Counted from the first letter of the stretch, positions 11,399-39,988 are shown. The stretch: DNA of 64,000 bases from Candidatus Pacearchaeota archaeon (GCA_018304175.1 JAGVWT010000002.1:564-64563); one strand, 5' to 3'. Notes: a model not told the origin generated them from the letters alone. A program made the numbers and translations.

Positions 11399-11472
11399 AA
11401 AGAGAATTGTAAGGTTTAGTATAAAAAAGTTTGTGAATTATAAATTTAGGAAGTTTTATAAATAAGTATTTT

Positions 11473-12300
11473 ATGCTTAGTCTTATGACATTAATTATGA
11501 AAATGAGTTTAAGACAAGAAAATGTACATAGGGTATGTGGTCCTTTACTGGGGCTCTCACCATTAGAATTAGAAGTTTTACTAGACCAAAGTTTTGAGGA
11601 AGTTAGAAGTTTTTATGAAGAGAACCACGGATTAAATAAAAATCTAGAAAAAAGACAAAATTACTTTTTTGCAAAAAGCTTCTTAGATGGATGTAAATCA
11701 GTAACGGGAAAAATTTCCAGAGAAAAACATTTAGAAACTCCCCAGATTTTTGTAGAAATGGGAGAAAAAGGATATTCTACAAAATACAATCCTCAAATTA
11801 ATCAGAGAATTGCAGAAAAATTGGCACAGTTCAAAAGAACTAATGGAAATAAAGTGCCAGCTGATAAAATATTTTCAAAGCAATTCACACAGAATAGAAA
11901 TTGGATTATTGAACAACAGCTTGCAATTGTAAAATATTTATGTGATTTACAAGAAATATATCTACAAACTGGGAATCTATTAGATTTAAAACCGGTAAAT
12001 CAACAAAATATTGTGGAACATATAAATTACTCTGCGTCCAGCGTGTGCAGATTAATTAAAAATTTATCTACTAAAATTCCAAGTGGAAGAGTTATTTTTG
12101 CATATGAATTAATTCCTGGAGCAAAGGAGACAAATCAGAAAGGAACTTATGCATTAATGCGACTTAAAGAAGACCAAACCCTATATGAAAATGGAAGATG
12201 GAAAGTTTCAGATAGAGAATTAGTACCAATTTTGGAAAATAGATTTGGTATTCAGGTAGCAAGAAGAACTATTTCTAAATATAAGAGAATGACAAAATAG
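11473..12300 (+). CDS. sigma-54 (RpoN)-like protein lacking an obvious core-binding domain
   Basis: C-terminus ...VSDRELVPILENRFGIQVARRTISKYKRM matches the RpoN box (ARRTVAKYR). Upstream LKPVNQQNIVEHINYSASSVCRLIKN...GRVIFAYELI parallels the sigma-54 DNA-binding domain. The N-terminus MKMSLRQ...LGLSPLELEVLL resembles region I. The true start may be an internal ATG (about 11487-11500). Confidence 0.6.
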   Translation: MLSLMTLIMKMSLRQENVHRVCGPLLGLSPLELEVLLDQSFEEVRSFYEENHGLNKNLEKRQNYFFAKSFLDGCKSVTGKISREKHLETPQIFVEMGEKGYSTKYNPQINQRIAEKLAQFKRTNGNKVPADKIFSKQFTQNRNWIIEQQLAIVKYLCDLQEIYLQTGNLLDLKPVNQQNIVEHINYSASSVCRLIKNLSTKIPSGRVIFAYELIPGAKETNQKGTYALMRLKEDQTLYENGRWKVSDRELVPILENRFGIQVARRTISKYKRMTK

Positions 12301-21843: not shown

Positions 21844-22461
21844 ATGCTTCAAGATATAAAAAATCTAATAAAAAACAAGAATGTTATTTTATTTGGAGAA
21901 TTTCATGGAACAAAAGAAATCCCAGAAATGCTTTCGCAATTTTTCTCTGAAATGGCAAAAGATGAAAATTTCAATATGTGTTTAGAGATTCCAGAAGAGT
22001 TTCAAAATTTAGAGCCGGATAAGATTCTTTCACATGCCAAAGAAGCCGATACAAGCGGGTTGATTAGTAAAGAGTATATTAAATTACTTAAGGATATTCC
22101 AAGAAATATAAAAGTGTTTTTTATTGCTCCAAATTTTATAAAAAATCAGGAAGATGTTGAAAATGGGCTAGCAAATAATATTCTAAAAATTCTTGATGAT
22201 AAAAAAACATTTGTAATTTTAGGCAATATCCATGCTTCTAAAACCCCGATAAATCTTGGTAATTTTAAAATTATAACTGCTGGAACCATATTAAATCAAG
22301 AGTTAAAGAATAAATTGTTTAGTATAAATATCTCACCAAAAAAAGGCAAATTTTATAATTTTGGTGTTAAAGAAATAAAGGATAGTGATGATATAAATTT
22401 TAATAAGGGTTTTGATTATGTTTTAAGAATAGATAGGGTCAGTCCTTGCTCGCTTTTATAA
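21844..22461 (+). CDS. ChaN/TIKI-superfamily protein
   Basis: The N-terminal VILFGEFHGTKEIPEML resembles the ChaN GE-H signature. Same superfamily as the TraB-like ORF at 16959. Confidence 0.45.
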   Translation: MLQDIKNLIKNKNVILFGEFHGTKEIPEMLSQFFSEMAKDENFNMCLEIPEEFQNLEPDKILSHAKEADTSGLISKEYIKLLKDIPRNIKVFFIAPNFIKNQEDVENGLANNILKILDDKKTFVILGNIHASKTPINLGNFKIITAGTILNQELKNKLFSINISPKKGKFYNFGVKEIKDSDDINFNKGFDYVLRIDRVSPCSLL

Positions 22462-22481
22462 TTTAAATCTTCAAAGAAAAA

Positions 22482-22832
22482 CTAATTTCCACCACTTCCA
22501 CCACCGCCACCACCAGAATCACTTCCTGAACTTCCACCACCTGCTACTGCAGCGCCAAGACCTAAAAGCAAAAGCAATCCTCCAATGCAGACAACAGTGT
22601 TGTCTTCGCAGAAACTTTTATCATCTTCTTGTGCTTCTTGCGCTCTTAAAACTCTGTCGCCGTATGAAGTATCATTTGCTGAATAACTTTGAGTTTGAGA
22701 ATTTGGATTATTCAGAGTATAACCGAAAGCAGTTACTTGAGGTGTTGCACATCCTGCTACAGAACCTGCTAAATAACTCGCCATTGCAACTCTTGCAATT
22801 CCTTTTCCAAGCTTTGAATCTAAGTATTTCAT
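22482..22832 (-). CDS. putative lipoprotein/membrane protein with a Gly-rich tail
   Basis: Lipobox-like SVAGC, a C-terminal TM (VVCIGGLLLLLGLGAAVA) and a GGGSSGSDSGGGGGGSGGN tail. Confidence 0.45.
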   Translation of the reverse strand: MKYLDSKLGKGIARVAMASYLAGSVAGCATPQVTAFGYTLNNPNSQTQSYSANDTSYGDRVLRAQEAQEDDKSFCEDNTVVCIGGLLLLLGLGAAVAGGGSSGSDSGGGGGGSGGN

Positions 22833-22928
22833 ATAAAATCCAATATTACCTACTTTTTAAAGATTTCTGTGATAGTGCATATCATAAATCAATAAAAAGA
22901 TTTAAAAATATGTAAGATATGTCTTACT

Positions 22929-23198
22929 ATGGTTAAAATAACTACAACCAAGATAAGTTCGAAAGGACAAATAGTAATACCTTCAAGCATGAGAAAGGAT
23001 TTAAGAAAGGGTGAAGAGCTGATTATAATAAAAGATGATGAAAGATTTATCATTAAGAAAGTAAATAATTTAACTAAAAACATAAGAGAAGACCTTGAGT
23101 TCGCAAGAAAAACAGAAGAAGCATGGAAAAGAATAGAAGAAGGAAAGGGTACGAGGATGAACTTTGACGATTTTATCAATGAAATGAAAAAATGGTAG
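22929..23198 (+). CDS. AbrB/SpoVT-family antitoxin
   Basis: N-terminal TKISSKGQIVIPSSMRKDL, the swapped-hairpin AbrB/MazE motif. Overlaps the toxin gene by 7 nt. Confidence 0.8.
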   Translation: MVKITTTKISSKGQIVIPSSMRKDLRKGEELIIIKDDERFIIKKVNNLTKNIREDLEFARKTEEAWKRIEEGKGTRMNFDDFINEMKKW

Positions 23199-23437
23199 GT
23201 ATTGTCTTCGATAAAAAATTCAAAGAGACTTTTTCTAAAATTAAGGATGAGTTATTAAAACAAAAAATTATAAAACAAATAGAAAAAATAAAAACTAATC
23301 CAAAAGCCGGGAAACCAATGAGATATACAAGAAAAGGAACAAGAGAATTATACATCAAACCATTTAGACTTTCTTATGCTTACTCAATTAATGATACAAT
23401 TTATATTTTAGATTTGTACCATAAAAAGAAACAGTAA
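23192..23437 (+). CDS. RelE/ParE-family toxin
   Basis: 81 aa. GKPMRYTRKGTRELYIKPFRLSYAYSINDTIYILDLYHKK is a RelE-like layout. Confidence 0.72.
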   Translation: MVGIVFDKKFKETFSKIKDELLKQKIIKQIEKIKTNPKAGKPMRYTRKGTRELYIKPFRLSYAYSINDTIYILDLYHKKKQ

Positions 23438-23446
23438 AACATAATT

Positions 23447-23688
23447 GCTTCGCTAACGCTCAGTTATTCTCTCACATCATTAATGTACAAAACCAAATTT
23501 TACATTATCAATTAAAAAAATACCCATGAGTTTATAAAATTTGTTTGAGAAAGTCTCACTCGCATTTCATGCTCACTTAAAAAAGCTCACTTGTAAATTC
23601 GTTCGAGATTTTTGCGTTTATTAATATGAAAAATTTGATTTTTATTTGTTAATTATTATATCAAAACTGAGCGACTTTGGAGTGAAGC
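23447..23688. repeat. intergenic palindromic repeat family R, copy E (compound)
   Basis: Contains ctcactcgcatttcatgctcacttaaaaaagctcacttgtaaattcgttcgagattttt (a full R arm). The inverted arm ttatatcaaaactgagcgactttggagtgaagc has the reverse complement gcttcactccaaagtcgctcagttttgatataa. Confidence 0.55.
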
Positions 23689-23729
23689 AATTTTTTCATA
23701 AATAAAAACAACGAGTGTAGTGGGGAGAA

Positions 23730-24860
23730 TTACTGCGAAACTGTTTTTTCCAAAGAAGGAACAATTTCAAATTCGTTTGATGCTCTGTATTCATTGTTGA
23801 TTTTCCAGACTGCCTTGTAATTTCCATAACCACCTTTTTCAACGAAGAAAGGAAGGAGTGGAAATCGCTGTGTTGTTTGGTTGCAAGTGTGATTTGGGAG
23901 ATAATTTCCAAATTCATTGTTTTCCTTGTGAATGTGGTCTATGTGAAAAAATTGCGTTGCAGTATTAAATGAATTAATTCTCATACTAATAAAATCACCA
24001 CCATAACAAGTCTCTGCTTTGTAGATTACTTCTCCTCTAGGAGAATAAACTTCAAGGTCAATAGTTCCTTTTACTATTCCTCTATTTGAAGCTTCTTTAA
24101 AAAGTAACCTAAATTCTTCATCTTCTTTGAATGTATTTTTAATGCCGACATTTTCATTAGGCCCAGTTCTCCCATCATTGTTGAAATCCCTGTTATAATT
24201 ATATGCGAAAGCGTAAGATTTATCCGCCGCTAACCATAATCTGCTATTTCTAAATTCTTCATCGACTAAACCTTGTTGGAAATTTGTTGGATTTGTTGTT
24301 CGTTGATTTTGTGTTGTAGTGTTTGTATTCAAACTTGCTGTTTGTTGTGCTTGTTGTGTTTGATTATAATTTCTTACACTTTCATTCAAACTTGCTATTT
24401 GTTGTGCTTGTTGTGTTTGATTATAATTTCTTACACTTTCATTCAAACTTGCTATTTGTTGCTGGTTGTTATTTGAATTATCGTTAATAGTAACTTCTGT
24501 TTCTGCCGACCTTGTGGTTAATCCGTAGTTAGTTAAATTTTCTCCGAGTATTGCAGCTCCTGGCGCCATTCTTTGTCTTTGAGGATTTCCACTTTGTGCT
24601 GCGTTTTGTGCTGCGGCGCCGAGTAAACTTCCTAAAAGAACATATTCTAATCCTGGCTCATTTTCAATTGTTTCACACGCAACCAGACTTGTAGACAAAA
24701 TTCCTGCTGCCACGATGTTTCTGACTTTTCTTCCCAAATCCATAAGATACAGAAGATTGTCGGCTTTTAAAATTTTTGGTAGCTTGAGGTTTTGATGTTG
24801 CCCATTAAAAAATTGTCTCTGAGACATTTTACTTGTTTTCCCAGAATAAATCTGTGACAA
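23730..24860 (-). CDS. putative lipoprotein with 19-aa tandem repeats
   Basis: Lipobox LSTSLVAC after the MDLGRKVRN n-region. A TATA-like ttttaaaa lies ~30 nt upstream, so the likely true start is the ATG at 24743. Repeats are QQIASLNESVRNYNQTQQA x2.4. Confidence 0.55.
   Translation of the reverse strand: MSQIYSGKTSKMSQRQFFNGQHQNLKLPKILKADNLLYLMDLGRKVRNIVAAGILSTSLVACETIENEPGLEYVLLGSLLGAAAQNAAQSGNPQRQRMAPGAAILGENLTNYGLTTRSAETEVTINDNSNNNQQQIASLNESVRNYNQTQQAQQIASLNESVRNYNQTQQAQQTASLNTNTTTQNQRTTNPTNFQQGLVDEEFRNSRLWLAADKSYAFAYNYNRDFNNDGRTGPNENVGIKNTFKEDEEFRLLFKEASNRGIVKGTIDLEVYSPRGEVIYKAETCYGGDFISMRINSFNTATQFFHIDHIHKENNEFGNYLPNHTCNQTTQRFPLLPFFVEKGGYGNYKAVWKINNEYRASNEFEIVPSLEKTVSQ
24327..24465. 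repeat. 57-nt tandem repeat, ~2.4 copies, in-frame inside the CDS
   Basis: attcaaacttgct(g/a)tttgttgtgcttgttgtgtttgattataatttcttacactttc is repeated head-to-tail at 24327, 24384 and 24441 (partial). Confidence 0.9.
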
Positions 24861-34583: not shown

Positions 34584-34621
34584 AATCTGGGAATAGAAAT
34601 GAGTTTTATAAAGTTAATGAA

Positions 34622-34712
34622 AAGCCTGTGCTGAGGATTGAACATGAGGGGCAACCATGTTTCCCCTTACACTAACCCCTTCCTAATTAGTTTAAACCTA
34701 TTTATTAGTTCA
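34622..34712 (-). repeat. tRNA-flanking element E plus a 22-nt exact duplicate of the tRNA-Thr 3' end
   Basis: 34622..34643 (aagcctgtgctgaggattgaac) is identical to 34740..34761. 34644..34712, read on the minus strand, is ggtttaaactaattaggaaggggttagtgtaaggggaaacatggttgcccctcat (hairpin AGGGG/CCCCT). Confidence 0.8.
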
Positions 34713-34740
34713 ATACTATTTCGCTTTGCTCAATAGCATA

Positions 34741-34813
34741 AGCCTGTGCTGAGGATTGAACTCAGGACCTCTACCTTACCAAGGTAACGCTCTACCAACT
34801 GAGCTACACAGGC
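34741..34813 (-). tRNA. tRNA-Thr (anticodon GGU)
   Basis: Folds by hand as GCCTGTG/CACAGGC acceptor, GCTC/GAGC D-stem, TTACC-TTGGTAA-GGTAG anticodon arm, CTGAG-TTCAATC-CTCAG T-arm. 73 nt, no encoded CCA. Confidence 0.9.
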
Positions 34814-34821
34814 GTGTTTAT

Positions 34822-34901
34822 GTAGCGAACTAATCAGTTTAAACGAATTCAAACCGGAAAGTGCGCGAGAAAACTTCGTGTTCTCGCTGAGCTACACAGG
34901 C
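34822..34901 (+). repeat. tRNA-flanking element E (inverted copy) plus a 15-nt exact duplicate of the tRNA-Thr 5' end
   Basis: gcgaactaatcagtttaaacgaattcaaaccggaaagtgcgcgagaaaacttcgtgttctcg (hairpin GCGAGAA/TTCTCGC), followed by ctgagctacacaggc (34887..34901), which equals 34799..34813. Confidence 0.8.
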
Positions 34902-34949
34902 ATTCGCTCAGCTAAAAGAATAAAAACGCGTTTAAAAAAATTTGCAGAA

Positions 34950-35249
34950 TTATCTTCTAAGCCAATTTCTGATAACGAGTATCAAATATACAATCAAGAA
35001 CGCAAGTGTTACAAATCCTGAAAGCAATGAAATCACACCGAAAAAGTTTACTGCGAGAATATTTGAAAGATTCTTGTAGAATCCCAAAGAAATTCCGAAA
35101 ATCACTGCGAATATTAGTAGATTTTTCAGAGCAAGGTTTGTTTTTCTGGTCGGAGCTTCTTTAGATGAAATATTCTGGTAAGATTTTCTGCTGCTCCTCT
35201 TGGAAATCCTTTTAGCCCTCTTTTTTCTAGCCATATAAGGTTTAGTCAA
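34950..35249 (-). CDS. small membrane protein with a basic N-terminus
   Basis: 99 aa with a K/R-rich N-terminus and two TM helices. Confidence 0.4.
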   Translation of the reverse strand: MTKPYMARKKRAKRISKRSSRKSYQNISSKEAPTRKTNLALKNLLIFAVIFGISLGFYKNLSNILAVNFFGVISLLSGFVTLAFLIVYLILVIRNWLRR

Positions 35250-35291
35250 AAAGACTTTTTAAATATTATCATTCACTTTTCAAGAAATATG

Positions 35292-35612
35292 TTATGTATC
35301 ACTCGTCATAGTTTTATTGTTATAACTCCAATCCATTTTCAGTGTGTTTGAAGTTAATGTTCTGACATTATTCCACGCATTTCCAAACCACAAAAAATAT
35401 GTTTTTCCGAATTCAACTGCTCCTGAAACACTTGACAAATCAGGGTCTGTTTTAAAGTAAACATAAGTTAATGAAATTGTTAATAGCAAGAATAATGCTA
35501 AGGTAAGCTTAATCACGATTTCTTGTTTTACATTTGCGACTTTCATTACAATAAATACAACTACTATTAAAATAATAACAAAAACGCCAACGCTGGACAT
35601 TTCAACTGCCAT
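35292..35612 (-). CDS. small membrane protein
   Basis: 106 aa with two TM helices. Confidence 0.4.
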   Translation of the reverse strand: MAVEMSSVGVFVIILIVVVFIVMKVANVKQEIVIKLTLALFLLLTISLTYVYFKTDPDLSSVSGAVEFGKTYFLWFGNAWNNVRTLTSNTLKMDWSYNNKTMTSDT

Positions 35613-35692
35613 TAATTACTTTAGTACAGAAAGTATAAAAAACTTTTGAATTACAAAAAGATTAAAAAATCCTTATTTCTCAAATAAGTTGT

Positions 35693-35765
35693 AGCCCCAT
35701 AGTACAGCGGTCAAGTATACTGCCCTCTGAAGGCGGTGACCCAGGTTCGAATCCTGGTGGGGCTA
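35693..35765 (+). tRNA. tRNA-Gln (anticodon CUG)
   Basis: AGCCCCA/TGGGGCT acceptor (A1-U72), CTGCC-CTCTGAA-GGCGG anticodon arm, CCAGG-TTCGAAT-CCTGG T-arm. 73 nt. Confidence 0.9.
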
Positions 35766-35770
35766 TTTTC

Positions 35771-35861
35771 AGGATTCTTGAACTAAATCGGTTTAAACAA
35801 TTAGGAAAGGTTAAGCGAAGGAAAACGTAGTTGTCCTCGCTTCGAATCCTGGTGGGGCTAT
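35771..35861 (+). repeat. tRNA-flanking element E plus a 20-21-nt exact duplicate of the tRNA-Gln 3' end
   Basis: ttgaactaaatcggtttaaacaattaggaaaggttaagcgaaggaaaacgtagttgtcctcgc, followed by ttcgaatcctggtggggcta (35841..35860), which equals 35746..35765. Confidence 0.8.
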
Positions 35862-35865
35862 AATT

Positions 35866-35982
35866 TCACTCGCCTGACGGCTCGAATGTAATTAGATTAT
35901 TAACGCAAAAACTTTAAGGTTAATATTAGAAAAGTTTTGATTATATGTTAATATTAAAATGTGAGCGACTTCGAAACGAACG
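35866..35982. repeat. intergenic palindromic repeat family R, copy G
   Basis: The left arm is tcactcgcctgacggctcgaatgtaattagattattaacg. The reverse complement of the right arm is cgttcgtttcgaagtcgctcacattttaatattaac. Confidence 0.5.
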
Positions 35983-36035
35983 TATTTTTAAGATTTAACA
36001 ATTAAATTTAAATATACTAAGATATTGAATTAATT

Positions 36036-36296
36036 ATGGTGAAGACTTCTGAAAAAGAGGTTGGGAGAATTTCAACTTATTTCAAAGATGTTGGTGTTGC
36101 TGCGATTGAATTAACCGGCGATTTGAAAGTTGGGGACACAATTCATGTAAAAGGGCACACGACTGACTTCAAACAAAAAGTTTCCAGTATGCAGATAGAC
36201 AGAAAAAACGTACAGAGCGCGAAGAAAAAGCAACACATTGGAATAAAAATTTCTGACAGAGTCCGGCCAAATGACGCTGTTTTTTTGGCTAAGTGA
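36036..36296 (+). CDS. small EF-Tu domain-2-like beta-barrel protein (tentative)
   Basis: 86 aa. VGVAAIELTGDLKVGDTIHVKGHTTDFKQKVSSMQIDRKNV resembles translation-factor beta-barrel domains. Confidence 0.35.
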   Translation: MVKTSEKEVGRISTYFKDVGVAAIELTGDLKVGDTIHVKGHTTDFKQKVSSMQIDRKNVQSAKKKQHIGIKISDRVRPNDAVFLAK

Positions 36297-36313
36297 TTTT
36301 AATTACCTGTAAT

Positions 36314-36478
36314 TCATATCATATCTAATCCAACTTTTTTTCTCTCGTATTTCATTCTTTTTTGATTCTTTATACTTTTTAGTAATCTTGAGATAGTTTT
36401 TTCTTCATTATATGCAGGAATAATTATGCTTATCTTTATTATTGACTGAATGAATAAAGATTTAAAAGTATTATACAT
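36314..36478 (-). pseudogene. remnant of a family-2 glycosyltransferase gene (N-terminal ~25 aa only)
   Basis: From the ATG at 36478: MYNTFKSLFIQSIIKISIIIPAYNEEKTISRLLKSIKNQ is the GT2 N-terminal signature (IIIPAYNEE). It then diverges and stops after 54 aa. The listed longer ORF runs into the tRNA-Glu duplicate. Confidence 0.5.
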
Positions 36479-36490
36479 ATAAAATAAATA

Positions 36491-36550
36491 GCAAAGCCCC
36501 GTTAGTTCAGTAAAAGAAACCCGATGGTTTCTTTTCAACTTCCTCGAAAC
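36491..36550 (-). repeat. 20-nt duplicate of the tRNA-Glu 5' end (with 5 nt of upstream flank) plus a diverged E-like hairpin
   Basis: gcaaagccccgttagttcag (36491..36510) equals 36603..36622. It is followed by the hairpin AAGAAAC-ccgatg-GTTTCTT and ..cttcctcgaaac (reverse complement gtttcgaggaag, compare E gtttaaac..aggaa). Confidence 0.65.
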
Positions 36551-36607
36551 GCGGAACGGCGATTTCAAATTGCCTCCGACGAAATCGCGGAGAACTCTTG
36601 GAGCAAA

Positions 36608-36826
36608 GCCCCGTTAGTTCAGAGGCCAAGAATGCGGCCCTCTCAACTGATAACTTTATTGGTTTCGGTTTTCTTGGGCTTGAAATAAACAAAGAAGAGT
36701 TATCTCGGCGAGAGAAAAGCTCTTGCTAAATGCAGCTTTGTTTATCGGTTCAGGAAAAGGGTGATTTCCTAACGGAAACTCACCGAGAGAACGGCCGTGA
36801 CCCGAGTTCGAATCTCGGACGGGGCG
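36608..36826 (+). tRNA. tRNA-Glu (anticodon CUC) with a ~146-nt intron at the canonical 37/38 position
   Basis: Exon 1 is GCCCCGT TA GTTC AGAGGCCAA GAAT G CGGCC CTCTCA. Exon 2 is C GGCCG TGAC CCGAG TTCGAAT CTCGG ACGGGGC G. Intron GAGAG (36785..36789) pairs with the anticodon-loop CTCTC. Intron about 36646..36791, junctions +/-2 nt. Confidence 0.8.
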
Positions 36827-36834
36827 TTGTTATG

Positions 36835-36874
36835 AGATGTGTTTTTTATTCAGGTATAAAACAAAAACACATCT
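36835..36874 (+). other. perfect 12-bp hairpin directly downstream of tRNA-Glu
   Basis: agatgtgttttt (36835..36846) pairs perfectly with aaaaacacatct (36863..36874), with a 16-nt loop. Function unknown (processing or termination?). Confidence 0.5.
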
Positions 36875-36880
36875 GTCTGA

Positions 36881-36954
36881 GGTTTGAAAAAATAGTTTAA
36901 GGAAAAGGGGAAAATCGAAAAAAACCACTAGGTTGTTTTCAAGTTCGAATCTCG
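36881..36954 (+). repeat. tRNA-flanking element E (diverged) plus a 13-nt duplicate of the tRNA-Glu T-arm
   Basis: ggtttgaaaaaatagtttaaggaaaaggggaaaatcgaaaaaaaccactaggttgttttc, followed by agttcgaatctcg (36942..36954), which equals 36805..36817. Confidence 0.65.
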
Positions 36955-37026
36955 CTTGAGATAGTAGCATTTACAAAAATGATAAAAAACCAAAACTTTT
37001 ATAAAAGCTTTTTTTCTATTAATAAA

Positions 37027-37073
37027 GTCTAACTTCGGTTAGACGTGGAGGGATGACTTCGGTCTATTCCTCC
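37027..37073 (+). other. two adjacent GC-rich hairpins, each capped by a TTCG tetraloop (candidate small structured RNA)
   Basis: GTCTAAC-TTCG-GTTAGAC (37027..37044) and GGAGGGATGAC-TTCG-GTCTATTCCTCC (37047..37073), in an otherwise AT-rich spacer between tRNA-Glu and dnaG. Confidence 0.4.
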
Positions 37074-37332
37074 TTCATTTTCTTGCAGAGTTTTTTATAA
37101 CCAAAATCCTTAAAAAGTCTCCAAAAGTATAATGTTATTGAAAAATACCGATTAGTATATTTCATTATCAAATTCACAATCACTTTCGTTTTTAGCTTTC
37201 CAGCGAAAGAAACCGTTTGGAATCATTTGAAATAGCAAAAGGCTGTTTTAAGAGCAATGAAAGAATTGCAAGGTATTTTTCTAAGTCTGTTATTATAACA
37301 GAAATTAAGTAAACAAATTAAAATAAAATAAT

Positions 37333-38502
37333 ATGGCTAAAGTAAGCCCAGTATCGATAAAATATATGATTTATGCGAATTTTATTGCAGAAGGTGCTTT
37401 GGAAAAACCTGATGTTATCGGAGCAATATTCGGGCAAACCGAAGGATTGCTTGGAAGCGACTTGGAAATGCGTGATTTGCAGAAAGAAGGAAAAATCGGC
37501 AGAATAGAAGTTGATTTGGAAAGAAGCGAGAAAAAAACAAAGGGACAAATAAAAATCCCAACTGCTTTGGATCAGTCAGAGACTTCTCTAATAGCTGCAG
37601 CAATTGAAACAATTGAAAGAATCGGACCAAGCGACGCGCAGATAGAAGTTGAAAGAATAGAAGACGTGCGCGGAAGCAAAAGAGATTTTATTGTTGAAAG
37701 AGCGAAGAAATTGATGAAAGAACTGCAGTCAGGCGCAGATTCAAGAGAGTTTTCAACTCAAGTCAAAGATTATTCAAGAATTTCTGGAATCACTGAATAT
37801 GGCGATGAAAAACTTCCTGCAGGAGACATTTCTGAAAGAGAAGTAATTGTTGTTGAAGGGCGTGCAGATGTTGTTAACCTATTGAAGAATGGAATAAAAA
37901 ACGTAATAGGAATGAACGGAACAAATCTCCCAAATACTATAAGAGATTTGAGCAGGGAGAAGGAAATCACTTTATTTGTTGACGGAGACAGAGGCGGAAA
38001 ACTCATAGCACGCAACGTTACTGATAATGCAAATGTGAAGTACATTGCAACAGCTCCTGACGGAAAAGAAGTCGAAGAATTAAATGGCAAGGAAATTTTC
38101 ATGTGCCTTAGAAAAAAAGTTCCTGTTGAAGAATTTTTTTACAGGGCAAACAGAAGATTTGATTACAGTGAAAAACCTGTACAAACACCAAGTCGAACAG
38201 CAGAAGTTAAAGAAGAAGATTTAAGCGACAAAGAAAGAGATGAACTCAGGGCAGTTTATGAAAGTAATAAGAAAAGAGGAAAGGCAATAATTCTTGATAG
38301 AAACTTCAAAAAAGTCAAAAGTGTTTCTGCGAAAAGTATTGTTGGTTCTTTAAGAAACCTTGATGAAAAACCATATGCAATAGTAATCGACGGAACGGCA
38401 ACTGCAATTGCTATAAATGCAGCTGAAGACGCAGATTGCAAAGTAGTTGTCGCAGATAATTTTTCTAATACAAGCTCAAAGCTAAAACTTCTGAGCTTGT
38501 AA
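37333..38502 (+). CDS. dnaG: archaeal DnaG-type primase / exosome-associated Toprim protein
   Basis: N-terminus KYMIYANFIAEGALEKPDVIGAIFGQTEGLLG is the archaeal DnaG signature. Toprim core VIVVEGRADVVNL...LFVDGDRGG. Confidence 0.9.
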   Translation: MAKVSPVSIKYMIYANFIAEGALEKPDVIGAIFGQTEGLLGSDLEMRDLQKEGKIGRIEVDLERSEKKTKGQIKIPTALDQSETSLIAAAIETIERIGPSDAQIEVERIEDVRGSKRDFIVERAKKLMKELQSGADSREFSTQVKDYSRISGITEYGDEKLPAGDISEREVIVVEGRADVVNLLKNGIKNVIGMNGTNLPNTIRDLSREKEITLFVDGDRGGKLIARNVTDNANVKYIATAPDGKEVEELNGKEIFMCLRKKVPVEEFFYRANRRFDYSEKPVQTPSRTAEVKEEDLSDKERDELRAVYESNKKRGKAIILDRNFKKVKSVSAKSIVGSLRNLDEKPYAIVIDGTATAIAINAAEDADCKVVVADNFSNTSSKLKLLSL

Positions 38503-38512
38503 TTTTTCTTTT

Positions 38513-39871
38513 TTAATAGTTGTCTAGATGGTTATCTGGATTATCTAAAAATATTCTTAATTTTCTGCCACGAGAAAAGTGGCGTAATTTTCTAATTGCT
38601 TTACCTTCTATTTGACGAATTCTTTCCCTAGTAACTCCAAGATTATCTCCTACTTCTTCTAATAAAAGGTCGTTGTCTTGATTAAATCCAAATCTTTCTC
38701 TTATAACACGTTCTTCTCTTGGAGTTAAAGACATTAAAGAATTAGAGACAACTTTTCTTTTATCATTTTTTACTACATTAGCAAACTGATTTCCATTATC
38801 AACTTCAACATCAATGTCAATTCCTTGATTTTCTTTTATTTCTGACAGTTGGTTATAATTTCCCGTTAAAGTCAAGTGTACATATCCTGAGATTGGATTA
38901 TGCCTGTTTTCTCTTCCAACATTTGGAAGTACATTCCTATTTTTAATTTTTTCAGCAAGTATTTTAATAAAGTCTTCATCAGATTTTCCTTGACGCTTTA
39001 CTTCTTCACATAACTTTATGAATTTTTCTTTTTTATTAGTGGGAATACTGGTGAAATATCCATTTTCAAGAGCATATTTTGATACAGTAGAAGCTACATT
39101 TGTCTTTATAAAACTGGAAATTCTCCCAGCTTCTGGTAGATAATTTTTCATTCTTTTTATTAAAGCTTCTGCACTAACATCTATTAAATCCCCTAATTCT
39201 ACGTAAGAAGGAAGATAATCAACCTTTGGTCTGAATCCGGTAACATATCTAATTTCTTCTTCGTCTTTATCTAATTCCTGCCTTCTACGGACAACATAAA
39301 ATTTGTTTGAACCTTTTAAAAAATCTGATGCAATATGAGTTATGTAAGGCATTGTTTTTGTGATAATTTCATTTATCGTCATTATTTGTTTGTCAGACCT
39401 TGTTTCAACTGTGTCTCCATATCCATCCATCAATTCAGTAAAATATTCTAAACCAAGTTTGTCAATTGCACGCCAACCTTCATCAGGGAAATTTCTTATT
39501 TCATCTAATGTCTTTAAACCAGGATATTCATCTTTTATTAAATCCTTAAATTTATGAGAAGCTTTTCTATTACTTGGTTCTGTAAGTGCATCCATTAAGG
39601 AATTGTATTTTTTAATTCCTATGCTTCTGTTTTCAAAATAACTTCTTACTCTATCAAAATAATTTCTGACTAAAATAGGAGTATGCTTTGTAATTTTGGC
39701 AATTTTGTTTATGTCAAAACTCAAATCAGAATTTCCTCTAGAAATGTGATTATACACATCAGTGAAACGGTCGTCTATTGTTTTTAAACCATTGTTTGCT
39801 TTTACTTGTGCTTCATAATCTTCTTCATACATGCTGTTTTGATTTAATTCTTTATTTATAAATATTCCCAT
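38513..39871 (-). CDS. sigma-70-family-like protein (clear region 4, divergent upstream regions)
   Basis: The C-terminal [50 protein letters not shown] closely parallels RpoD region 4.1/4.2 (LTxRExxVLxxRFG...[29 protein letters not shown]). Confidence 0.65.
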
Positions 39872-39956: not shown

Positions 39957-39988
39957 GTTACTAACAGTTAGTACTATTTAGTTAGTAA
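39957..39988. promoter_or_regulatory. palindromic candidate operator in a divergent promoter region
   Basis: gTTACTAAC-a-GTTAGTAc (39957..39974) is a near-perfect palindrome. A third half-site GTTAGTAA lies at 39981..39988. It sits between the sigma-70-like gene and the surface-protein gene. Confidence 0.3.

Follow-up and report, generated by a model that had tools for sequence, protein, structure and literature searches.

Bacterial sigma-54 (RpoN, sigma-N; TIGR02395; Pfam PF00309, PF04963 and PF04552) binds promoter DNA without the core RNA polymerase (RNAP), unlike sigma-70, and its C-terminal domain suffices to bind the -24 element; Region I of the bacterial protein talks to AAA+ activators and holds the polymerase closed complex. 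To our knowledge, sigma-54 has been treated as a purely bacterial invention. Its DNA-reading module occurs without polymerase binding in isolated fragments, such as the C-terminal domain of Aquifex RpoN (PDB 2o8k/2ahq), the promoter-bound sigma-N fragment (PDB 5ui5) and RpoN*, the 'molecular roadblock' peptide made of the -24-binding residues of Region III, which binds promoters alone and blocks transcription (PMC6491466). A naturally truncated sigma-54 gene is found in Neisseria's rpoN-like sequence (RLS), in which a frameshift removes the helix-turn-helix (HTH) and the RpoN box, and which is regarded as a non-functional, species-level decay product (PMC6755734). On the archaeal side, Castelle et al. 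(2021) reported homologues of sigma-70 (fam00359) in DPANN genomes, with partners and control unknown, and sigma-54-like genes go unmentioned there (PMC8204110). A sigma-54 survey of 2025 states that archaea lack sigma factors and records sigma-54-specific enhancer-binding proteins in 0 of 380 archaeal proteomes (PMC12316311), and the literature outside subscription journals yielded no description of sigma-54-like proteins in archaea. The gene considered here lies at 11473..12300 (plus strand) in 64 kb of DNA from a Candidatus Pacearchaeota archaeon (GCA_018304175.1, JAGVWT010000002.1:564-64563; this whole stretch is called the window, and positions count from its first letter), and its product is best regarded as a sigma-54 family member with a new architecture, encoded in a domain of life new to that family.

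The product of this open reading frame (ORF; 275 residues, C-terminal end GIQVARRTISKYKRMTK by the ORF list and by reading of the sequence) is a relative of sigma-54 well beyond chance, as the original prediction, made from the sequence alone, had proposed. The Pfam model of the DNA-binding domain, Sigma54_DBD (PF04552), matches residues 150-273 along profile positions 26-149 of 160 with E 2.7e-11 and 43.9 bits, above the curated gathering score of 22.8. The NCBIfam rpoN models are matched in their C-terminal halves alone and far under their equivalog cut-offs: TIGR02395 gives 52.9 bits for residues 75-272 (profile 215-423 of 434), where a full-length sigma-54 equivalog scores at least 277. 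When the profile of 65 short relatives was compared with that of 23 full-length bacterial sigma-54s by hhalign, residues 85-275 aligned with probability 99.8 and E 3.2e-30 to the last ~200 residues of the bacterial proteins, and residues 87-273 of the family profile correspond to residues 273-465 of the 477-residue solved sigma-54 chains. By phmmer and hmmsearch the RpoN domain aligns to full-length sigma-54 as well as to 2o8k/2ahq, the solved C-terminal domain of RpoN. An AlphaFold (AF2) model built on a 24-sequence alignment, with a mean predicted local distance difference test (pLDDT) of 84.8 and a predicted template-modelling score (pTM) of 0.80, leads to the same family; the 24 top Foldseek matches in the PDB are all sigma-54/SigN chains, with noise below them, at probability 1.0 for ranks 1-19, 21 and 22, 0.99 for rank 20 and 0.89-0.92 for the last two, and with query-normalised TM-scores (TMq) of 0.38-0.50 except for 5nwt at 0.26.

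The architecture of the protein can be followed along the gene, and the three elements named in the original prediction, the RpoN box at the C-terminus, the HTH and a Region-I-like stretch, could all be located:

11497..11622, plus strand: Region-I-like N-terminal segment, residues 9-50, MKMSLRQ...GPLLGLSPLELEVLLDQSFEEVRSFYEE, with the helix at residues 30-51 modelled confidently (AF2)
11623..11724, plus strand: family-specific linker, residues 51-84, with N63-Y64...F70...C74 conserved, in the place of Region II and the core-binding domain
11725..11973, plus strand: beta-hairpin (PQIFVE...YSTKYN, residues 88-106), helix, and a long helix (residues ~136-166) equivalent to the sigma-54 extra-long helix
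12007..12063, plus strand: HTH, residues 179-197, NIVEHINYSASSVCRLIKN, equivalent of the sigma-54 HTH for the -12 element
12118..12297, plus strand: RpoN domain, residues 216-275, with the RpoN box ARRTISKYK at residues 263-271 (nt 12259-12285)

Both DNA-reading elements of sigma-54 are conserved in the alignments. The HTH aligns to the -12 HTH of solved sigma-54 (counterpart NIVEHINYSASSVCRL) and to the STVSR consensus of the 23 bacterial sigma-54s; the family consensus is ..G-Y-S-x-T-S-V-S-R-L.., represented by SASSVCRL in the window protein, and its motif S-x-S-V-x-R-L compares with STISR of sigma-54, the two helices being modelled at residues 177-184 and 188-195. The RpoN box is nearly canonical (ARRTISKYK versus ARRTVAKYR) within a domain alignment of GIMVARRTVAKYRESL versus GIQVARRTISKYKRM, and R264, T266 and Y270 are conserved to at least 90% across the family. 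Upstream of these elements, the hairpin region (modelled strands 92-96 and 101-105, followed by a helix at 136-159) aligns to E. coli and Klebsiella sigma-54 from their residue 273 (IPDVLVRK...VELN).

The N-terminus seems to resemble Region I modestly yet specifically. Compared with the full-length bacterial profile, the N-terminal profile of the 65 relatives finds its best match in Region I, in register from the initiator methionine (columns 5-40 versus 2-42, score 25.4, P 3e-4), the next-best segment scoring 14.3 and the reversed query 10.2; against the N-terminal slice, 40 column shuffles reached at most 8.7, compared with 22.5 for the real query. This profile-profile match was obtained even though Pfam Sigma54_AID (PF00309) finds nothing in the ORF product at E<=10 or in the 65 relatives at E<=0.01, and the likeness is visible by eye in distant members as well (MSQGLRLRLDLS..., MRQGMYLRQ..., ...LSxxELExLLEE...).

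Region II and the core-binding domain are absent from the window protein and from all 65 relatives scanned; loss of the latter domain had been suspected from the length of the ORF. Sigma54_CBD (PF04963), the Pfam model of the core-binding domain, is unmatched in the ORF product even at E<=10 and in all the relatives scanned. In a bacterial reference protein the Sigma54_CBD hit covers residues 100-302 and that of Sigma54_DBD residues 354-514, and the archaeal homology begins at residue 288, so that only the tail (the last ~15 residues) of the core-binding model survives and ~190 residues are gone. The linker of ~40 residues that stands in their place is conserved within the family, with low pLDDT at residues 54-61; a remnant core-binding domain concealed in it was ruled out, as hhalign of residues 42-92 matches no part of bacterial sigma-54. 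The protein thus reads as Region I, extra-long helix with HTH, and RpoN domain, joined without Region II or a polymerase anchor.

Set against bacterial sigma-54, the ~190 C-terminal residues (beta-hairpin, extra-long helix, -12 HTH and RpoN domain) are homologous, there is hardly a difference in the RpoN box, the helix near the N-terminus appears to correspond to Region I in register, and the predicted fold matches sigma-54 only. In contrast, the archaeal protein has 271-275 residues instead of 420-520, and the window around its gene offers no bacterial core polymerase, bacterial enhancer-binding protein (bEBP) or -24/-12 promoter signal. By its DNA-binding domain and RpoN box the protein would count as a sigma-54 factor, not by core-binding domain, equivalog score or system partners. 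The isolated sigma-54 fragments share with it a DNA-reading module freed from polymerase binding, but they are laboratory constructs, whereas the archaeal protein is natural and conserved and adds Region I and the -12 HTH. Neisseria RLS is truncated at the opposite end, and unlike that decay product the archaeal proteins form a conserved family under selection. The DPANN sigma-70 homologues are likewise native bacterial-type sigma modules in Woesearchaeota/Pacearchaeota-type genomes; they belong to a different sigma superfamily (regions 2-4) without homology to sigma-54. The tentative remark in the original prediction that sigma-like genes had been noted in DPANN genomes holds for sigma-70 (PMC8204110) and not for sigma-54.

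The extent of the family was assessed by an exhaustive profile search over 1.84 billion representatives, which returned 1772 hits at E<=1e-3; at E<=1e-10 there were 109 representative clusters. Nearly all top ranks are proteins of 230-400 residues, and the canonical sigma-54s of 420-520 residues follow from around E 1e-11. A word-indexed search gave the same division, as all hits under E 1e-21 are short forms and the full-length hits, all of which carry the three Pfam domains, have E 1e-16 or worse. Sigma54_DBD was detected in 55 of the 65 short forms, and PF00309 or PF04963 in none of the 65. The window protein fits this group in its length, its Region-I-like helix, the short linker, the sigma-54 DNA-binding domain and the lack of Pfam hits for the other two domains; a second, very divergent subfamily is likewise annotated in Pacearchaeota (P0119). 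The best bacterial matches reach no more than ~25% identity, and therefore point to no recent donor; as they are also taxonomically scattered (Kiritimatiellae, Bacteroidales, Alteromonas), any transfer would have been ancient or would have passed through unsampled intermediates. The gene would have been acquired horizontally, as the original prediction suggested. Another architecture on the same DNA-binding module is provided by P0052 (L017 7001-8416), a protein of 471 residues that matches the archaeal family with E 8.7e-52 over its C-terminal 205 residues, and whose N-terminal 260 residues are unrelated to Region I or the core-binding domain of sigma-54.

By the measures available from sequence the gene is native and under purifying selection. 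The GC content stays close to 0.32 throughout the window, and the synonymous-codon deviation of the gene, 1.68, falls within the range of its neighbours (0.81-2.5; PheRS-beta 1.68, ThrRS 2.06), so the compositional likeness to the neighbours first noted by eye was confirmed. Archaeal markers in the window comprise ThrRS with the archaea-specific editing domain, two-subunit PheRS, RNase P p30, a DTD2-type D-aminoacyl-tRNA deacylase, a TrmB regulator, ribosomal protein S7 and a DnaG-like Toprim protein. The original prediction had held every informational gene here to be archaeal; this is true of the neighbourhood, but a sigma-70-like ORF at 38513..39871 had been overlooked. An identical protein is encoded by 14 contigs among the JGI, Logan, ENA and NCBI assemblies, the longest of 97.8 kb, and homologues of 42-66% identity and ~270-280 residues, named as Candidatus Nanoarchaeia, Pacearchaeota and Aenigmarchaeota, sit on contigs of 187-406 kb beside PolD DP2/DP1, Cdc6, TFE-alpha, Hjc, aIF2-beta, ribosomal protein S8e, LonB and ScpA. 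Pairwise ratios of non-synonymous to synonymous substitution (dN/dS) range from 0.05 to 0.32, with dS saturated (>=1). The gene stands alone and its neighbours vary among loci, as expected of a regulator and not of an operon component; HtpX, LemA and hyp404 were considered as conserved operon partners, and none recurs beyond close relatives.

Transcription signals and the start codon were read as follows:

11450..11463, plus strand: archaeal-type promoter, a purine-rich GAAG resembling the TFB-recognition element (BRE), then the TATA box TTTATAAA (sequence read directly)
11485..12300, plus strand: most likely coding sequence, 271 residues from Met5 (based on the TATA position, homologue N-termini, the length of MBS3070769.1 and dN/dS)

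The archaeal BRE/TATA consensus and the usual distance from TATA box to start are established knowledge, and it is by this consensus that the element is taken as the putative promoter of the sigma-54-like gene. The first ATG, at 11473, is the mechanical ORF start and was also the start adopted in the original prediction. The TATA box, at 11455-11462, ends just 10 nt 5' of it; because this is too near, the start is placed at Met5 (11485). A BRE/TATA element, ..GAAAG(A/G)TTTATAAA.., recurs 22-35 nt upstream of the ATG in nearly all orthologous loci, homologue N-termini start at the position equivalent to Met5, and MBS3070769.1 (NCBI, same 90% cluster), named 'hypothetical protein [Candidatus Pacearchaeota archaeon]', has 271 residues. 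The transcript probably starts near 11485, with Met5 as the true start and a leaderless or near-leaderless message for a product of 271 residues.

On this homology, domain content, loss of the core-binding domain, nativeness and purifying selection, the protein is viewed, with a probability of roughly 60%, as a mini sigma-54 that derives from bacterial sigma-54, lacks the core-binding domain and serves in a DPANN archaeon as a self-contained regulator that binds DNA sequence-specifically. It would have descended from bacterial sigma-54 with retention of Region I, the extra-long helix, the -12 HTH and the RpoN domain and with loss of Region II and the core-binding domain, and the gene would be maintained vertically in Pacearchaeota, where the archaeal machinery would transcribe it from a BRE/TATA promoter of its own. 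Because the C-terminal part of sigma-54 binds promoter DNA without RNAP, a polymerase-independent DNA binder is proposed. By analogy with the bacterial factor, it would bind double-stranded DNA as a monomer at a bipartite site of about 16-18 bp (~1.5 helical turns), with the RpoN box reading one major groove and the HTH the next turn. The bound protein would then modulate archaeal transcription by occluding or recruiting TBP/TFB/RNAP, without being a true polymerase subunit; the isolated sigma-54 fragments, which attach to the -24 element by themselves and are able to repress by occlusion, exemplify this mechanism. The repurposing as a conventional regulator suggested in the original prediction is thereby retained as what we infer about function; the elements of that prediction open to checking were supported.

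If so, exaptation of the DNA-binding module of sigma-54 as a unit in its own right is possible in another domain of life, and the archaeal family would have kept the DNA-reading and activator-responsive parts of sigma-54 and discarded the polymerase anchor. A natural minimal sigma-54 would be on offer for dissecting Region I without core or bEBPs, and in combination with the sigma-70-like genes found in these genomes it makes the compatibility of bacterial sigma modules with the archaeal polymerase testable. The annotation of the family members, now labelled 'hypothetical protein', is corrected in any case.

Several observations weigh against the regulator reading. The sigma-54 promoter motif TGGCAC-N5-TTGCW (<=3 mismatches) is not enriched in the window, with 202 matches versus 197.6 +/- 14.2 expected, a test of low power because only 64 kb were scanned; TGG-N8-TTGCW gives 9 matches versus 4.4 expected, a nominally twofold excess whose sites, where checked against the ORF table, fall within ORFs. 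GG-N10-GC is not conserved upstream of the gene in orthologous loci, and the search for sites of this type recommended in the original prediction, which covered canonical sigma-54 promoters in the window and autoregulatory sites, gave no signal. No DNA target is identified, and the functional statements depend on homology in organisms that are uncultured. Moreover, the retention of Region I is left unexplained by a simple DNA-binding role. The search for bacterial machinery found within the window no bacterial rpoB/C, no Sigma54_activat bEBP, no GAFTGA motif and no second copy of the gene. LonB, which carries a precomputed Pfam Sigma54_activat hit owing to AAA+ similarity, lies two genes away in L008 (9252-11096) and L010 (9579-11456) and was considered as an AAA+ partner; its proximity is confined to one syntenic group (tblastn) and is regarded as coincidental. 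The Lon_C gene that follows the homologue in L015 was likewise discarded, its product not being an AAA+ Lon.

A conserved element was observed further upstream of the orthologues. At least 11 distinct promoters of the sigma-54-like gene, with differing upstream genes, contain the palindrome T(T/A)ACTAC-N5-6-AGTNA(C/T) at a distance of 27-31 nt upstream of the TTTATAAA box, for example at:

L002 7818-7839, L005 7441-7462, L008 7937-7958, L010 7937-7958, L018 97-118 and L022 4822-4843: palindrome sites

The sole other hit of at least 13 bits in 308 kb of fetched loci, L004 12980-13001, is located upstream of a TrmB-family gene, and TrmB homologues occur within 5 kb of the sigma-54-like gene at several loci. 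The palindrome is absent from the promoter of the window gene, and the best hit in the window, 14.1 bits at 39967, is not above shuffles. As an operator of the sigma-54-like protein itself it was rejected, being symmetric, without GG, absent from the window promoter and present before a TrmB gene too; it is probably the operator of a dimeric, perhaps TrmB-like, regulator that controls the sigma-54-like gene.

Among the alternatives, the one that survives best would make the protein a sigma-like initiation factor for the archaeal RNAP, either by itself, by way of Region I and the long helix, or with a sigma-70-like protein supplying polymerase binding; it is considered unlikely. Its appeal stems from the maintenance of Region I across distant family members, from the prevalence of sigma-70 homologues, of unknown control, in Woesearchaeota and other DPANN (PMC8204110), and from the presence of a sigma-70-like gene in the same window. 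This ORF, 38513..39871 (minus strand, 452 residues), matches Sigma70_r4 (Pfam E 1.3e-15) and the PHROG 'RNA polymerase sigma factor' (E 1.5e-17) and is a second bacterial-type sigma module in the window, which fits the DPANN sigma-70 family of Castelle et al. (2021). It is also homologous (BLASTP E 6e-7) to the sigma-70 part of a natural fusion, P0190 (L014 8001-9263; GCA_004196275.1, SDBV01002366.1), in which sigma-70 regions 2-3-4 are joined to a C-terminal domain resembling the extra-long helix, HTH and RpoN domain of sigma-54. The fusion tail (P0137/P0190) aligns to the short family by hhalign with probability 98.6 and E 1e-15, and the fusion gene sits on an archaeal contig directly beside S7-S12, TrmB, NusA-KH, L7Ae/L30e and the split archaeal Rpo1 (rpoA''/A'), a cluster of archaeal RNAP genes that lends the idea of an initiation factor some further weight. 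However, the fusion protein has a degenerate RpoN box and a degenerate STVSR motif, so that it does not demonstrate joint DNA reading. The core-polymerase anchor of sigma-54 is wholly absent from the archaeal family, -24/-12-type promoters are not enriched in the window, the gene and its neighbours use ordinary BRE/TATA promoters, and neither a bEBP-like protein nor a GAFTGA motif is encoded within the window, all of which speaks against an initiation factor. As to the surroundings of the sigma-70-like gene, the DnaG-like Toprim gene (37333..38502, plus strand) is convergent with it, the two ends lying 10 bp apart. The pair is reminiscent of the bacterial dnaG-rpoD adjacency; a shared operon is excluded by the convergent orientation.

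A broader and more speculative proposal, held to be improbable, is that DPANN of the Pace-/Woesearchaeota type possess a hybrid promoter-recognition layer, built from bacterial-derived sigma modules, on top of TBP/TFB, or else that the family represents an ancestral sigma-54 from before the core-binding domain was gained. In the hybrid layer, sigma-70-like proteins (regions 2-4) and core-less sigma-54 may serve as accessory specificity factors that contact the archaeal RNAP, and the fusion gene beside the rpoA operon would be a fossil of a sigma-70/sigma-54 partnership.

Quite improbable, too, is a DNA-binding protein derived from a mobile element and domesticated in DPANN, with a non-transcriptional or element-specific role such as partition, direction of recombination or that of a transposase-accessory HTH. 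It is suggested by a distant short form, P0090 (L016 7001-8167), a protein of 388 residues with an N-terminal helix, the DNA-binding domain and a Cys-rich C-terminal extension, whose source label is 'transposase'; its gene sits between a type I restriction-modification system and genes for DUF932, DnaB and an HTH_3 repressor, and several relatives match generic transposase HTH models weakly. The P0090 locus is a probable bacterial mobile (integrative) element, a setting which implies that core-less sigma-54 relatives extend beyond archaea. The close family (42-66% identity), by contrast, is found among housekeeping genes and away from integrases and transposases, the gene is single-copy in the window, its length is fixed at ~275 residues under strong purifying selection, and the protein has no PHROG or PADLOC match, by which a phage or defence origin was also ruled out.

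An artefact, either a bacterial fragment mis-assembled or mis-binned in an archaeal contig or the decaying remnant of a transferred rpoN, might have been suspected from the otherwise bacterial distribution of sigma-54 and from an ORF of about half the normal length, but its odds are minimal, and within the limits of sequence data mis-assembly, contamination and pseudogene decay are all excluded by the uniform GC content and native codon usage, the archaeal promoter, the flanking of the gene on both sides by genes of the same contig with ThrRS, RNase P p30, DTD2 and TrmB across the window, at least 36 homologue clusters that keep a constant length and lie on long, independently assembled archaeal contigs, and dN/dS well under 1.

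Finally, two segments of the window, 22460-23730 (1.3 kb) and 34600-37330 (2.7 kb), have no ORF of at least 120 residues; Rfam at gathering thresholds adds nothing further to the second, which contains tRNA-Thr and tRNA-Gln.

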